Below, in pieces: positions 882 through 62,686 of a DNA stretch of 64,000 nt; the first letter of the stretch is position 1, and each line of letters opens with the position of its first letter. The stretch spans positions 38,998,001-39,062,000 of the forward strand of contig OZ024741.1 in NCBI GenBank assembly GCA_964016885.1, read 5' to 3'. The translations under genes and the position numbers were made by a program. Under the pieces are notes generated by a model, which was not told the origin of the DNA, made no database searches, and saw only the letters and a program-made list of their open reading frames with translations. The stretch comes from Eledone cirrhosa (Eukaryota).

Positions 882-968
882 AGGTGACGCGCGTTTCGCC
901 ACTGATCAGCTCAAGGTTCGATCTGTATCTATCCTACCCGACTCAATAATCGGCAGCTCGACGGACCC
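882..968 (-). ncRNA. Degenerate type I hammerhead-like motif
   Basis: Minus strand: GGGT-CCGTCGA-GCTGC...GTGGC-GAAA-CGCGCG-TC-ACCT. Stems I, II and palindromic III are present, but the core deviates from CUGANGA. Confidence 0.45.
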
Positions 969-1067
969 TTTTAAAATGCTATAAGAAAATGAAATACATG
1001 CTATGTGGTAAAGTCAGAATTTCAAGGGTTTGACAAAATGAGTTGTTTTGATTGGTGGGAAGGATCA

Positions 1068-1375
1068 AAACCAACTCGCTGTTTCGAAAATATTCTTACT
1101 TGACATTACAGTCGCTAAGTTTATAGCTTCTAATTTGAATGGAAACAGACAGGTGATGTGTTGGTGTAAATGGTAGCACAGTGGTCCGGATAACCAAAGA
1201 TGTGGGTTCGACTCCCATGTACGTCAATATTCATCGTTTTTCCATTTCTCCGAGGGTTCTTAACCCTACTATCTGGCTAAATAATTTATTTAATTTCTTT
1301 AGTCAAAATACGGCGATAGCTTACATTTATAATAATTTCAAACCAACTCGCTGTTTCGAAAATATTCTTACTTGA
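1068..1375 (+). mobile_element. ~270-bp repeat unit containing a tRNA-like gene, with a ~36-bp terminal direct repeat
   Basis: AAACCAACTCGCTGTTTCGAAAATATTCTTACTTGA occurs at both ends. A tRNA-like segment lies at 1155-1226. A second copy lies at 40619-41147. Confidence 0.7.
1155..1226 (+). pseudogene. tRNA-like sequence (SINE head or tRNA pseudogene)
   Basis: A box TGGTGTAAATGG, B box GGTTCGACTCC, acceptor GATGTGT/GTACGTC, anticodon stem TGGT/ACCA with non-canonical loop CCGGATA, and a T5 terminator shortly downstream. Confidence 0.65.
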
Positions 1376-1590
1376 TATATATATATATAAAATTGCAAGT
1401 TTGAAGAATTATTAGATAAAATATATACGGTATTTCCTCTCCCTCGTCCGTATAAATCCATCACGTAAATAATCATTTAAACGAGGCTATAAGTTTAAAA
1501 TGTAACTATGAAGAAATAATCGACAAATGATACAGACTATCTTCCGCGAGGAATATATATAGAAAGAGGGAGAGAGAGAAAGTGGGGGGA

Positions 1591-1792
1591 TAGTGAAGGC
1601 GCGTGGCTGAATGATTGCAGAATTTGATTGGCAATTGTGAGGTTGTGAGTTCGATTCACGGACGGGACGATGCGTTATGTCCTTGGGCAAGACACTTTAT
1701 TTCACGTTGCTCCTTCTGGAGTTGCGACCGATCGAGAGTATTAGCAATTAGAAAGACCTCGGTACGATTTGACGAATGTCAATCAACTGTCG
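1591..1792 (+). mobile_element. tRNA-derived SINE, family 2
   Basis: A-box-like GGCGCGTGGCTGAATG, B box GAGTTCGATTC and core GTCCTTGGGCAAGACACTTTATTTC. Homologous to the minus-strand copy at 56921-57339. Confidence 0.75.
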
Positions 1793-58276: not shown

Positions 58277-58470
58277 TAATTGTTTCTACTTTTGGCACAA
58301 GGCCAGCAATTACCCAGTGCATTACTGGTACTTTATTTTATCGACCCCGTAAGGATGAGAGGCAAAGTTCACCTTGGTGGGATTTGAACTCAGAATGGCA
58401 AGGGCCGTAACTCTATGCGTCAAAGCATGCCATCCGACCCTCTACCAATACTGCCAATCCACCGCCTTTT
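58277..58470 (-). mobile_element. SINE family 1, full-length
   Basis: A box TGGCAGTATTGG, B box GAGTTCAAATCC, core and tail. Confidence 0.88.
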
Positions 58471-60030
58471 ACTGATATATATATAATAAAATATATTTTG
58501 ATTACGTTGAATGTCAATATTTATTAATATTTTGAATTAATATATATATATATATATATATATATATATATATACATATATATATATATATATATATATA
58601 TATATATATATATATATATATATATATATATATATATATATAACGAAGGAAATGTGGTAAGGAACCAGGTGGACCATAACGCACCAAAGTACTCAATACT
58701 TGAGGTAGTAGAGTGGGTAATAGGAACCAGTAAGACCCCGACAGCTGAGCTCAAGCCGTTTCGACGGCTAATTCTGGACTAAATGAAAATTTATCCTGGT
58801 ATTTAAATAGCCGATCTTCTCAAGGGGTAATTCCATATATGGTCAAAGTGATTGTCAAAAATCAGTAGTAATTCTGTGGTTGCAAATTAGTAGGGGAGAT
58901 GGTGGCTAAACCTGCCAGTAGGAGAAAGAGGGGAGGGGGTGGAGTAGACCCAATCAAGCGTTGGTAGTGCCAGCTACAGCTGGGCATGAGGTCAAAGAAG
59001 ATACAGGGGAGGGGGAGGGGGAGGGGGAGGAAGTCGGAACGGTAGGTAGAACAATGGGGGGTAGAAATATAGGAAGGAAAAAATACTGAGAGTGAAGAAA
59101 AGCAAATAAGTGTAAAGAAAAAAGTAAAGTAAATTAAATTCTACGACCTAGGTGTCAGGCTATTGTTAGGCTAGAATAAAATAAATAAAGAAAGAAAGAA
59201 GTAAAGAAATAAATAAATAAAGAAATAACGAAATAAGTAAAAGAACTAGGTGGGACGAAATAGGCAAAGACCCTTTTAAGAGGTATAAGTACGTAAATGA
59301 TACGGTGACGGGTCAACAAAAGGGGCCAAAATACTAAAGAGACTACCACGAAATAAACAATAAAGGTTTCCATCCCGGGCCAGCAACGACCCAGTGCAGC
59401 AAAGTGAACTTGTACGAGATAATAATTCTGAGTCCCGAGAAAAATATATACTAATGCTAACTCTAAAAGATCTAAAACAAGCTACATGAAAGTTCGTACG
59501 AAATAAAGGTAGAATACGGAGAAATAAATTCAGAATCCACCCCGCCCAGAAGAAAAGCGAAGCAAGAAATACTGAAACGAAAAAATAAGGCATAAGTGCC
59601 ACTAAGAAATATAGAGGGCACAGAGAATAGTGGGAGCAGTCGGAAAGAGGGGGCAAGTATCCGGGGTCTAAGCCAACTGCTATAAAGGGCGGAGTCCGCC
59701 AAATCTATCATAGACTAGGGGAGGGGGTGGTGGGGGTACTAAAGCTACATGGGGCCAAAGGGCAGCCTCGGGTGGGCGAGAAAAGACGCCGACAAAGGAG
59801 AAGAGCTGGGGTAGAAGGACAGGAGCTGGGGTAGAAGGACAAAGGAGAGAGGGGGGAAGGAAATAAAGGAAGCGATAAAAGAATACAAAGAAGATCTTAC
59901 GTCTTCCTTGGCAAGCAGGGGTTACCCATTGCAAAATCGGCAAGTGGGGTGTTATAGCCCTAGTCTACCCCCCCCCCCCCCCCGGGTCATTATGGGGTTT
60001 GAGGGCGAGGTAAGTCCTACGCAATCTATG

Positions 60031-61358
60031 TTAACATGCAGTAACCAGTTCATCTTTCTTGTTTAGGAGTTGGTCCGTCGAAAACAGCATTTGTAAAGTT
60101 TCCTCCGAGCATAAATTGCACGGACGGCGTCCTCCCGTGTAAGAATTGGCTCTGGACAGTAATCTCCAAGTGAGATCATAGGTGATGTTGTTGTCCTTGA
60201 GGTCCCATATGTGGCCCGAAAGTGTAGTGGCGTGACGCCGGGCCGGGTTTCGGAAGGTATGTCTATGTTGGTATAGCCGGGTCTTGAAGTCACATGCGGT
60301 AAGTCCTATATAGGCTTTGTTGGAGGTATCCGTCCTCACGTTGCACTGGTAGATCACATTACGGTCTCTACATCTATTGTCGAGTGGGCAAATAGATCTA
60401 TCCGGGCAGTTACACCTCCTGGTCGGGTCTCCACTGCTATTTAGGTTATTTCTGACATCGGGGTTGAGTTTTTTGTTGTTAGAGGAGACGATGTTTTGTG
60501 CGAAGTTTGGTGTAGTGCTGTAAGAGAGTTTGATGGTATTTTTGTTAATTATGTTGTGGTAGCGGTGTTGTAATGGGAAGTGTTTTTCAATGAGCCTAAA
60601 GAATAGTTTCTCGATGGGAGTAGTCACCTCTGCGTTGTGGGGAGGATTGAACCATGTTACATTGCGTGAGCGGCGGTGTCTCCTGCTGGTTCCGCTAATG
60701 GGAGCTGGACAGTAGGATATTTCCTCCCGGAAACCACTCCGCTTGAGGGCCTGGTTGTAATAAGGCGCATGTTCATCGAATATCCGCTCATTAGCTGACA
60801 AACGGGATATGCGGAGGGAGATGTTTTTGACCAGGTTGTTTGTGATGTTCCTAGGATGGTTTGATCGGCGGTGGATGTAGTGCAGATTGTCATTAGGTTT
60901 CCTGTATGGGTAGTACAGGTCGTTTTCGAGGTCGAGGGTCACGTCCAGGAAGTTTGCTCGGGTCAGGGACGTTTGTAGGGTTATTTTAAATCCCCAGTCG
61001 CGGAAGAATCTGATTAATTGTTTCCGGACCCGATCTGTACTACTGGGGTTGTACCCTTTAAGGGTAAGGAGCCCATCATCACGGTACAATCCACCACCGA
61101 ATGCAGGAAACATATCAGTGAGTTTGGCTATTAGGAATAATCCTATAAGATCTGTGACCTCCGCCGAATCCGTGGCGCCCATGCTGACGTCGAAGGGTGA
61201 GTCGGGAGCTCTTTTTATCCATCTATAGTCGTCAAAGAGTAAGACTGTCTTCCTGGCGTGGAGAATGATTTTTCTTTCCTGGTCGGTGATGGGCACAAGT
61301 GTTTCGGCGAAGTCCAAGGCGGCAGTAAGTAGCGGTAAGGTGATTGAAGCATAGTAGC
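60031..61358 (-). pseudogene. PLE RT (from motif A onward) + GIY-YIG endonuclease
   Basis: SYYASI, FDVSMGATDSAEV, GLYRDDGL, NFLDVTL, SNHP, WFNPP, CNC..CPL..C..NVIY..YIGLT..FKTR..H, CNLC..E..LLNK. Premature TAA at 60031-60033 (AAA in the other arm). Confidence 0.93.
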
Positions 61359-62574
61359 TGAACTGGTTACTGCATGTAAACATAGATTGCGTAGGACTTA
61401 CCTCGCCCTCAAACCCCATAATGACCCGGGGGGGGGGGGGGGGTAGACTAGGGCTATAACACCCCACTTGCCGATTTTGCAATGGGTAACCCCTGCTTGC
61501 CAAGGAAGACGTAAGATCTTTGTATTCTTTTATCGCTTCCTTTATTTCCTTCCCCCCTCTCTCCTTTGTCCTTCTACCCCAGCTCCTGTCCTTCTCTACC
61601 CCAGCTCTTCTCCTTTGTCGGCGTCTTTTCTCGCCCACCCGAGGCTGCCCTTTGGCCCCATGTAGCTTTAGTACCCCCACCACCCCCTCCCCTAGTCTAT
61701 GATAGATTTGGCGGACTCCGCCCTTTATAGCAGTTGGCTTAGACCCCGGATACTTGCCCCCTCTTTCCGACTGCTCCCACTATTCTCTGTGCCCTCTATA
61801 TTTCTTAGTGGCACTTATGCCTTATTTTTTCGTTTCAGTATTTCTTGCTTCGCTTTTCTTCTGGGCGGGGTGGATTCTGAATTTATTTCTCCGTATTCTA
61901 CCTTTATTTCGTACGAACTTTCATGTAGCTTGTTTTAGATCTTTTAGAGTTAGCATTAGTATATATTTTTCTCGGGACTCAGAATTATTATCTCGTACAA
62001 GTTCACTTTGCTGCACTGGGTCGTTGCTGGCCCGGGATGGAAACCTTTATTGTTTATTTCGTGGTAGTCTCTTTAGTATTTTGGCCCCTTTTGTTGACCC
62101 GTCACCGTATCATTTACGTACTTATACCTCTTAAAAGGGTCTTTGCCTATTTCGTCCCACCTAGTTCTTTTACTTATTTCGTTATTTCTTTATTTATTTA
62201 TTTCTTTACTTCTTTCTTTCTTTATTTATTTTATTCTAGCCTAACAATAGCCTGACACCTAGGTCGTAGAATTTAATTTACTTTACTTTTTTCTTTACAC
62301 TTATTTGCTTTTCTTCACTCTCAGTATTTTTTCCTTCCTATATTTCTACCCCCCATTGTTCTACCTACCGTTCCGACTTCCTCCCCCTCCCCCCCCCCTC
62401 CCCTGTATCTTCTTTGACCTCATGCCCAGCTGTAGCTGGCACTACCAACGCTTGATTGGGTCTACTCCACCCCCTCCCCTTTTTCTCCTACTGGCAGGTT
62501 TAGCCACCATCTCCCCTACTAATTTGCAACCACAGAATTACTACTGATTTTTGACAATCACTTTGACCATATAT

Positions 62575-62686
62575 GGAATTACCCCTTGAGAAGATCGGCT
62601 ATTTAAATACCAGGATAAATTTTCATTTAGTCCAGAATTAGCCGTCGAAACGGCTTGAGCTCAGCTGTCGGGGTCTTACTGGTTCC
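62575..62686 (+). ncRNA. Type I hammerhead with U3:A8 core (family A)
   Basis: ACCCC-TTGAGAA-GA(T)CGGCTA...TAGCCGTC-GAAA-CGGCT..AGCTG-TC-GGGGT, with a distal GGAA/TTCC extension. The sense-strand copy is at 58723-58834 (-). Confidence 0.78.

Follow-up and report, generated by a model that had tools for sequence, protein, structure and literature searches.

Fixed ends of short Hydra-clade Penelope-like insertions in Eledone cirrhosa, a likely DNA record of hammerhead ribozyme cutting in the cell

In the Eledone cirrhosa genome, Hydra-clade Penelope-like elements (PLEs) occupy (TA)n tracts and their short copies end at fixed points; judging from the sequence, these ends probably mark where two reverse transcriptases (RTs) ran off either a capped RNA start or an end cut by the hammerhead ribozyme. 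Since the short insertions stop at the predicted cut and at likely capped starts, they are likely a DNA record of ribozyme cutting inside the cell; in vivo cleavage, read from DNA junctions, is likely for family A only. The available text of PMC4209133, PMC8557442 and PMC11167929 calls open both the in vivo role of PLE hammerheads and the formation of inverted, tailed insertions. Junction counting makes both questions addressable from any good assembly, with cut site and transcript start readable from DNA for each family.

The window analysed is the 64-kb stretch from 38,998,001 to 39,062,000 (forward strand) of contig OZ024741.1 (GCA_964016885.1). With a descriptor for the type I fold that requires three stems around a C3-G8 or U3-A8 core and tolerates long loops, we obtained 17 canonical matches at a score of at least 24, compared with a mean of 0.25 (maximum 2) in 100 local dinucleotide shuffles; the equal frequency in shuffled DNA that the sequence-only reading had named as refuting was not seen. 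With a relaxed core, in which one change was permitted and canonical, U3-A8, U4A and U4C cores were retained, 20 sites with a score of at least 23 fell into 15 sequence clusters. Together with degenerate copies, this agrees with the earlier impression of about 15 folds and more than 20 copies, except that the copy number was set too high because inverted twins of single insertions were counted separately (14900/20772, 53333/53746, 58823/62586, 33860/34729). Twelve of the 13 positions named at that stage pass the descriptor (C3 at 7757-, 16869+, 20772+, 26983- with U4C, 34729+ with U4A, 36286+, 39771+, 42152+ with U3-A8, 46786+, 53746+, 56349+ and 62586+ with U3-A8). At the thirteenth, 40246 (C3 40321-), the core is canonical and stems I and II are present, but stem III is irregular; one search recovered the site, and both scored descriptor runs missed it. 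Of the 20 window sites, 18 have a TA run no more than 250 nt 3' of the cut, as do 136 of 165 sites in a genome sample, against 25% of random positions, which bears out the proposal that the termini abut (TA)n.

In a 1.19 Mb sample of the genome, canonical cores numbered 123 against 0.8 in shuffles, and the variant cores U3-A8 (26 vs 4.2), U4A (11 vs 0.7) and U4C (5 vs 0) were likewise in excess; few other single-change classes exceeded the shuffles, mostly through matches to simple repeats or through isolated decayed copies. In DNA this rich in AT and microsatellites, chance matches gain some ground when any single core change is permitted (285 observed, background 91). As a general explanation their probability is nevertheless negligible in view of the canonical count, the family structure, the bias towards TA runs and the strand bias relative to ORFs. 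Chance is refuted for all except low-score singletons. Rfam detected no hammerhead at gathering thresholds and, at E<=5, none among the 150 of 355 matches listed; it misses every motif of the radiation, many of which had been anticipated to be too variant for standard searches. The small motifs are not unusually stable, with |z|<1 against shuffles in five of eight folded. Outside family A, the window holds the following hammerheads and remnants:

883..967, minus strand: degenerate hammerhead (site 882, C3 964; U4C plus A6U)
5463..5616, no strand: U4A short head-to-head insertion, partly decayed
7651..7767, minus strand: hammerhead with a stem II region of 78 nt and palindromic stem III
14854..14908, minus strand: family B hammerhead, sense strand, 3' of an ORF remnant
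16860..17011, plus strand: hammerhead with a stem II region of about 115 nt and palindromic stem III, nested in a family B element (z -5.3)
18581..19084, minus strand: family B Hydra-type endonuclease remnant (tblastn E 3e-34; weak Pfam GIY-YIG match)
20736..20818, plus strand: family B promoter and canonical hammerhead; TATA box 20736-20743, initiator-like A 20766 immediately before stem I, C3 20772, U10.1-U11.1, cut predicted after 20810
22862..22985, plus strand: hammerhead whose stem II is long; its inverted twin, near 21425, is mutated at 16.1
23217..23271, minus strand: U4A hammerhead within a short head-to-head insertion
23570..23680, no strand: family B-type head-to-head insertion, joint just 5' of the core
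26778..26817, minus strand: minimal U3-A8 hammerhead with weak stem I (descriptor)
26939..26989, minus strand: U4C-core hammerhead, sense strand, 3' of an ORF remnant
28407..30596, minus strand: decayed Hydra-type ORF (tblastn)
33812..33868, minus strand: inverted twin of the next hammerhead
34708..34790, plus strand: U4A-core hammerhead; initiator-like A 34724 immediately before stem I, C3 34729, cut predicted after 34769
35206..35294, minus strand: hammerhead with irregular stem III (descriptor)
36279..36327, plus strand: minimal hammerhead with an extra base after A9; terminus 4 nt past the cut
39765..39804, plus strand: minimal hammerhead with loopless palindromic stem III (descriptor)
40246..40326, minus strand: hammerhead related to the motif at 35286; its core is canonical and its stem III irregular
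42145..42287, plus strand: hammerhead with U3-A8 core; stems II and III are both long (descriptor, folding)
46780..46822, plus strand: minimal hammerhead with palindromic stem III (descriptor, clustering)
53290..53341, minus strand: canonical hammerhead, inverted twin of 53746
53736..53791, plus strand: canonical hammerhead
56339..56446, plus strand: hammerhead with a 13-bp stem II base, single copy among the sequences examined

For motifs with an adjacent ORF, location in pseudo-LTRs of Hydra-clade PLEs inserted in (TA)n is confirmed; that the remaining clusters, which have no tie to an ORF, are also PLE ends is assumed. Each of the window's three coding remnants is a minus-strand Hydra-type ORF with a fold 3' of it on that strand, just as the sense-strand placement had been described. 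Of 30 C-terminal ORF matches from sample and window, 12 had a hammerhead within 2.5 kb downstream on their own strand, one had it on the opposite strand and 17 had none; 11 clusters could be linked to an ORF. The clade assignment is based on ORF motifs, (TA)n insertion and the pseudo-LTR hammerhead. A single ORF of 713 aa combines the RT (YRDD at 348) with a C-terminal GIY-YIG-type endonuclease (Y..YIG at 593-608). It carries an RWK-type motif (RWR at 37) and, in place of DKG, DKT at 117; the U4A family has RWR and DKT as well. GxKF/Y is absent. Its CxCX5C linker and the CxxC and CxH that flank conserved E and N, at 572, 670 and 698, each recur in 111-116 of 120 homologs. Pfam gave no match for the Hydra-type protein P0001. 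A young element with intact 713-aa ORFs is now available for biochemistry.

Much of this is known ground: the PLE link, the palindromic stem III and the high motif diversity have been published, the association of hammerheads with (TA)n and their variability within one genome in PMC8557442 and PMC4209133. The Hydra clade as described in the available text of Craig et al. 2021 (PMC8557442) shares RWK-like and DKT motifs, the CxCX5C linker, CxxC and CxH around E and N, the pseudo-LTR hammerhead, (TA)n targets, an inverted truncated copy and a one-ended tail. By comparison with those elements, the tail is longer here (80-100 vs 30-40 nt), the unit is larger (3.3-3.5 kb vs below 3 kb) and a U4A core occurs family-wide; about two dozen families stand against dozens of clusters and about 400,000 motifs.

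Family A is represented by one insertion at 58.7 kb and by short copies:

2804..2998, no strand: short head-to-head insertion, both arms ending in loop II, without the core box
6845..7051, no strand: short head-to-head insertion; the long arm begins at the wall A, with a G before it
35858..36058, no strand: short head-to-head insertion of an older subfamily
41390..41588, no strand: short head-to-head insertion of a subfamily
42544..42735, no strand: short head-to-head insertion
58641..58720, minus strand: tail of about 80 nt between the short and the long terminus
58733..58830, minus strand: hammerhead with U3-A8 core, C3 58823, 54-nt stem II region; cut predicted between 58740 and 58739
58770..58809, minus strand: TATA-like box 58800-58809 and initiator-like A 58780 inside loop II, the wall of short copies
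60031..61355, minus strand: Hydra-clade PLE ORF, 5'-truncated, with RT motif YRDD, CxCX5C linker and C-terminal GIY-YIG-type domain
62579..62676, plus strand: inverted twin of the hammerhead; short terminus about 20 nt past the cut

The box at 58800-58809 and the A at 58780 resemble the TATA and initiator consensus. The hammerhead is the minimum-free-energy fold of its sequence, and the two arms of the insertion differ at 3 of 1332 aligned positions, compared with 13-18 of about 1300 for the next-closest comparably aligned copies. The family is young: its 93 scored matches comprise the window's own copy and 92 at 98% identity, tandem arrays are present, and exact matches to the ribozyme halves number 9,706 (3' half) and 2,059 (5' half). 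Many copies are half-ribozymes ended at fixed points that mark likely transcript starts and the cut site, an observation beyond the sequence-only reading.

All 20 short family A palindromes examined have different junctions, and their 40 arm ends all fall 34-44 nt before the cut. Across three families, one long terminus is paired with one short terminus in 56 of 59 scorable palindromes (three more were unscorable), and the two family A termini are likely two RT start sites. Self-priming has been proposed for head-to-head PLE palindromes (PMC3846280), and the near identity of the arms within one insertion would suit fold-back products of this kind, or a non-autonomous family from one or a few founders. 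We consider both very unlikely: the junctions differ throughout, the arms begin at different termini, which of them is longer varies, and loop II is not kept as a fold-back centre.

In three families (A, B and U4A) the sharp 5' walls stand on an initiator-like A. A TATA box lies at -30 from the wall in family B, and the U4A wall is broader and has no well-placed TATA box. Where an untemplated base precedes the wall A, it is G in 13 of 14 cases compared with 11 of 34 elsewhere (Fisher p=0.0003), a sign likewise described for full-length L1 (PMC11702581). It is likely a cap signature, and the family A wall at 58780 likely marks a transcript start.

At the predicted cut (+1), counted in one family at one position, 111 family A copies begin exactly genome-wide, against 7 at -3 and 10 at +5; the comparison covers these three positions, and the two control offsets used slightly different degenerate letters. 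Sequence preceding +1 was non-native in all 30 cut-site loci read; in nine of them both arms end at +1 around a single added A or T, and one locus (L364) holds a whole ribozyme with seven untemplated bases exactly at the cut. In three of the 30 loci the partner arm passes the cut and reaches the wall, an arrangement that calls for two templates or for cutting after the first round and before the second. Copies starting at the cut are rare (111 against thousands) and mostly short; the unbiased genome sample contained none, and the sequences examined for U4A and other families gave no +1 spike, with a single contig joint at +1.

The same end points would arise, with no need for cutting in vivo, if RTs stalled at RNA structure or bound protein at the base of stem III and the top of stem II. 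The +1 position does adjoin the stem III base, in family A the wall falls within a loop II hairpin, and minimal PLE hammerheads are slow in vitro (PMC4209133). Stalling is nevertheless unlikely: it leaves unexplained why a G precedes the wall, why a TATA box stands at -30, why arms meet at +1 around one added base and why bases are inserted exactly at the cut. The walls of families B and U4A, for their part, sit at the fold's 5' edge, which an RT reaches after traversing the stems. Cervera and de la Pena 2014 (PMC4209133), in the text available, state that there is no in vivo evidence for PLE hammerheads.

Our preferred reading, run-off at a capped start or a cut end, would place these observations in one cycle. 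A pseudo-LTR promoter would start RNA at the wall A, on the base before stem I (B, U4A) or inside loop II (A). The protein would cut (TA)n on both strands and prime two cDNAs from fixed start sites separated by 80-100 nt. Where the 5' repeat copy is the template, both cDNAs would soon run off the RNA end, one perhaps copying the cap as G. Joining of the cDNA ends via 0-3 nt of microhomology or short insertions would give the short palindromes, and cDNAs of a hammerhead-cut minority of RNAs would stop at +1. The 5' end is resolved in 20 long copies; it falls at the wall in none of them, and 16 continue upstream. Since long copies pass both walls, they would derive from read-through multimers or from cut-and-ligated circles.

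A close parallel is the Poseidon element PAc of Anolis (Frangieh et al. 2024, PMC11167929), in which, according to the text available, two internal RT start sites set the tail, both strands are cut and extended, targets are AT-rich and uncut RNA is the dominant template. That study found no RNA reads ending at the cut, in contrast to the 111 genomic junctions and cap-like wall of family A; its finding that cleavage of the anole element is dispensable in vitro counts against our scheme. It is conceivable, at well below even chances, that the ribozymes cut but are passengers, with cleavage yielding only dead-end short copies and having no role in full-length elements. Cut-site copies are indeed few and mostly short, Craig et al. 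(PMC8557442) point out that canonical hammerheads are missing from most Naiad and Chlamys elements, which thrive all the same, and one successful family here carries U4A. On the other side, cores and stems are retained across dozens of divergent families, and the long copies run on past the wall as a circle would allow. This possibility fits the promoter, priming, run-off and cut-RNA steps and bears on the origin of long copies alone.

We tentatively go one step further than run-off, to a view that we hold to be possible rather than probable. The insertions would form a nucleotide-resolution fossil record in which capped RNA starting at or inside the hammerhead gives abortive twin cDNAs, whereas cut RNA, present in the germ line and ligated into circles, templates all full-length and tandem copies. 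If true, PLE ribozymes would gain their long-sought in vivo role, and this genome, with its roughly 400,000 motifs and a U4A-core lineage that thrives among them, would be the richest natural hammerhead library in the literature searched.

The genome-wide estimate of about 400,000 motifs (310,000-500,000) is extrapolated from the 1.19 Mb sample. Window and sample together gave 65 clusters, 31 of them with at least two copies; in these multi-copy clusters the stem II region ranges from 10 to about 120 nt and stem III is family-specific, which supports the suggested radiation of PLE families, each with its own ribozyme architecture. Dozens of natural architectures missed by Rfam become available. 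The motifs have a conserved three-stem type I core whose ends meet in stem I, with a deviation at position 4 in families of the U4A and U4C type. The U4A-core family is autonomous, has at least 9,228 copies and probes how strict position 4 is. For stem II of one 40-sequence sample family, in a homology-built alignment uncontrolled for relatedness, 42 cells changed on both sides and none of 500 shuffles attained the covariation score; at least as many covarying pairs arose in 34 of the 500, and variation in stems I and III is confined to one side.

The literature searched holds no report of the 400,000-motif scale, of an autonomous U4A-core family or of junction footprints. Perreault et al. 2011 (PMC3088659) describe U3-A8, U4C (in a viroid) and U10.1-U11.1; U4A is absent from the main text, figure and supplements aside. 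Minimal PLE hammerheads (Cervera and de la Pena 2014, PMC4209133; Lunse et al. 2017 via PMC6765202) share the type I form, the palindromic stem III (perfect in 14 of 25 multi-locus families here), the U3-A8 swap, the extra base after A9, variability within a genome and opposite-strand pairs. According to the available text of PMC4209133 they number 2,000-9,000 per genome; unlike them, the motifs found here have stem II regions of up to about 115 nt, often a mismatch at G10.1-C11.1 and, in several families, a monomer-type stem III.

Non-LTR retrozymes (PMC7229834; bioRxiv 10.64898/2026.07.22.740005) resemble our motifs in their type I hammerheads and PLE link. They form arrays, whereas the bulk here consists of dispersed PLE termini, and the highest count found in the available text of these sources is 120,000, for axolotl. 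The window sites lack the short non-coding tandem repeats, with a ribozyme per unit, that define retrozymes; such short ribozyme tandem arrays do occur elsewhere in the genome, at L321 (299 bp) and L103 (311 bp).

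A type I hammerhead descriptor detected 17 sites at a score of at least 24 in the window, compared with 0.25 in 100 block-wise dinucleotide shuffles, bearing out the motif excess suggested by the sequence-only reading. With a relaxed descriptor, which permitted one core change and from which the canonical, U3-A8, U4A and U4C cores were retained, we obtained 20 sites in 15 clusters, in line with the proposed 15 or so distinct folds in more than 20 copies; several of these sites are inverted twins belonging to a single insertion. Twelve of the 13 positions named in that reading passed, the exception being 40246, whose stem III is irregular; the site at 882 contains two core changes. 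Low-score singletons (e.g. 35137−, 36876+, 37103+ and 63038−) were dropped as hammerheads, and a satellite cluster (F17) was rejected. As anticipated for motifs too variant for standard searches, an Rfam scan of the window reported no hammerhead at gathering thresholds. Folding energy does not set the small motifs apart (|z| < 1 in 5/8 against shuffles); among the 20 window sites, the hammerhead is the lowest-energy fold only in family A, the young Penelope-like element (PLE) family of 58.7–62.7 kb (58823−/62586+).

In a sample of 119 regularly spaced 10-kb regions drawn from large contigs of the 3.0-Gb genome, 165 hammerhead sites were spread over 70 regions, which extrapolates to approximately 400,000 motifs genome-wide (bootstrap 310,000–500,000); the motif density of the window is about twice the genome average. 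Published counts in the sources consulted (PMC4209133; PMC7229834; bioRxiv 10.64898/2026.07.22.740005) reach at most 9,000 for the minimal motifs of Xenopus and 120,000 for axolotl retrozymes, and a comparable scale was not reported in the open literature, supplements aside. Observed sites exceeded shuffled ones for the canonical (123 vs. 0.8), U3-A8 (26 vs. 4.2), U4A (11 vs. 0.7) and U4C (5 vs. 0) cores of the sample; few other single-change classes do so, mostly through simple-repeat matches or lone decayed copies. Clustering resulted in 65 groups, 31 of them with at least two copies, which agrees with the proposed radiation of PLE hammerhead families; part of the singleton clusters probably represents noise. 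Of 25 multi-locus families, 14 have a perfectly palindromic stem III, in keeping with the published dimer model (PMC4209133). In a homology-built 40-sequence alignment of one sampled family, the covariation score and cell count of stem II were reached by none of 500 shuffles (the pair count by 34), and stems I and III varied on one side only.

The initial finding as stated is real but largely a known feature, namely the hammerheads of Hydra-clade PLEs. The full family A protein (713 aa) contains the RWR, DKT, CxCX5C, CxxC..E and CxH motifs and lacks GxKF/Y. Craig et al. (PMC8557442) list the same protein features for the Hydra clade, along with insertion into (TA)n and hammerheads throughout the clade, and family A was placed there by these motifs. 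All three coding remnants named in the sequence-only reading are of the Hydra type and, as stated there, lie in sense to the folds. Among C-terminal ORF matches in the sample and the window, 12 have a downstream hammerhead on the same strand, one on the opposite strand and 17 none. The ORF at 60.0–61.4 kb yielded 93 scored genomic matches (itself and 92 at 98% identity) from 92,738 first-look candidates, including tandem units of 3,531 bp. In arrays built of full-length units at loci elsewhere in the genome (L043–L046, L189–L190; L293–L296), unit length is near-uniform within an array and varies between arrays (3528–3548 bp).

For the family of 34729+ (U4A family), the genome contains 9,228 exact matches to a 38-base pattern in which position 4 is A, whereas a 34-base form allowing anything but A there has 123, a mixture of T, G and C, which implies that the source elements carried A. 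The terminus of this family has 26,773 genome matches, and the family adjoins ORFs of the Hydra type that share 54% identity with family A. U4C and U3-A8 are already known core variants; U4A appeared neither in the main text of PMC3088659 nor in a whole-word literature search, and other published variant lists could contain it. The lineage is apparently unreported, with a putative ability of its core to cleave. The U4A core also occurs in another family, unrelated to this one, at L129 (1887−) and L132 (4374+).

Five short palindromes in the window, i.e. short head-to-head insertions, are family A ends broken within loop II. Genome-wide, the 3' half of the family A ribozyme has 9,706 exact matches versus 2,059 for the 5' half, an imbalance due in part to divergence among subfamilies. 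The first 100 3'-half matches listed include 27 inverted pairs spaced 11–33 nt apart and three spaced more than 632 nt apart, with none at 34–632 nt. Twenty short-palindrome loci showed 20 different junctions, with every arm ending 34–44 nt before the predicted cleavage site (cut), and a short and a tailed (long) terminus were joined in 56 of 59 scorable palindromes of three families. Two RT start sites, as demonstrated in vitro for PAc (PMC11167929), would give such pairing. Both the distinct junctions and the paired termini are at odds with fold-back products or founder amplification, which we regard as a very improbable source of the short palindromes. Our initial idea, fold-back primed by loop II itself, was rejected.

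The sharp 5' end point of the short copies (wall A) lies at −40 relative to the cut in family A (minor at −44), −44 in family B (14900−/20772+) and −45 in the U4A family, in a context that we take to be initiator-like in all three. In family B, a TATA box is located 30 nt upstream (20736–20743). Wall A is the base preceding stem I in family B and the U4A family, so that their RNA would start with the ribozyme; in family A it lies inside the ribozyme, where the RNA would start. The untemplated base preceding wall A, called by heuristic filters, was G in 13/14 cases versus 11/34 elsewhere (p = 0.0003), and in 6/8 versus 6/34 in a stricter subset (p = 0.004). At the junctions of full-length L1 insertions, an additional G has been put down to the cap (PMC11702581). 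A pooled breakpoint scan is confounded by subfamily divergence in all families but B. Contigs from sequencing runs (type unstated, maybe of the source sample) have loose ends both at the termini and close to or at the walls, and are uninformative on expression.

Among tailed family A copies with both upstream bases non-native, 111 begin at +1, the first base 3' of the cut, versus 7 at −3 and 10 at +5, the two control offsets used. All of the first 30 inspected have non-native sequence before +1: nine have a single A or T flanked by two arms that both stop at +1; in five, the partner arm is trimmed to +2 to +7; in three, it extends to the wall; one (L364) retains the complete ribozyme, with 7 additional bases placed precisely at the cut; and 12 show other junctions. 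This pattern is what run-off from cut RNA predicts. The signal is limited in that +1 adjoins the stem III base and cut-site copies are rare, with none in the unbiased 1.19-Mb sample and no spike in other families, whose copies are few, in the approximately 2 Mb examined.

The best reading of these junctions, and in our view a likely one given the insertion sequences, would be twin priming on (TA)n: reverse transcription would begin at two sites and run off a capped or ribozyme-cut RNA end, and the resulting ends would be joined. Stalling at structure, an unlikely cause of the end points, would leave the G before the wall, the TATA spacing and the inserted bases at the cut unexplained. We found no earlier report of a combined cut and cap junction record in the open literature, supplements aside; besides this record, the scale and the U4A lineage were not found in print, and Hydra hammerheads of molluscs may be included in S2 of PMC8557442.

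A ribozyme that cuts and is nevertheless a passenger, which we consider possible but rather doubtful, overlaps with twin priming and run-off and differs solely on the origin of long copies. Among 20 distinct long copies crossing the pseudo-LTR/ORF boundary with a resolved 5' end (duplicate loci dropped), none ends at the wall, two end at or near the cut, two at +39 and +55, and 16 continue upstream; many further long copies, outside this set, extend beyond the retrieved flank. Full-length copies are therefore not derived from unit-length capped RNA. Circles and read-through multimers both fit these copies, and DNA alone cannot tell them apart.

Mini-tandems, in which sequence starting at the wall or at +1 is joined to positions between +160 and +330 of its own element, were observed at nine loci (L291, L300, L303, L308, L322, L323, L327, L335 and L339) and suggest template jumps or small circles. 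Two arrays are retrozyme-like: one consists of seven 299-bp family A units, in which the hammerhead is complete and loop II shortened (L321, 579–2816, reverse strand), and the other, of a different family, has a 311-bp repeat (L103, 8750–9990). An unpaired C3-A8 core occurs in three copies, at two loci, of an older subfamily of family A (L016, 654–766; L103, 1886–1999).

The window contains the following further elements:

8798–11626, plus strand: RT ORF of a non-LTR retrotransposon, divided between two frames (Pfam: RVT_1 at E 6e-24 and a weak zf-RVT match)
31294–31755, minus strand (Pfam E 4e-5), and 3447–3704, plus strand: GIY-YIG-type remnants without match to the Hydra protein
5806–6590, 21271–23023 and 55850–56106: additional large inverted repeats
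45478–46407: presumed mariner-like remnant with terminal repeats
49560–52264: presumed L1/Tx1-like remnants
56926–57189: 66-bp tandem repeat
1155–1226 and 40943–41014: tRNA-like segments within a repeat, exceeding the Rfam threshold
123–310, 13934–14082, 16748–16867, 33102–33268, 45102–45427, 58276–58461 and others: abundant short SINE-like repeat

The two GIY-YIG-type remnants probably belong to another PLE clade. Pfam gave no match for two frames examined near 49.6–51.2 kb. The inverted repeat at 55850–56106 has a U4C core at 55955+ with the junction in stem I, and the 40617–41114 copy of the tRNA-like repeat is partly palindromic. The short SINE-like repeat, which we presume to resemble an octopus SINE, often lies within TA tracts or PLE ends and breaks up the hammerheads at 2041− and 58227+.
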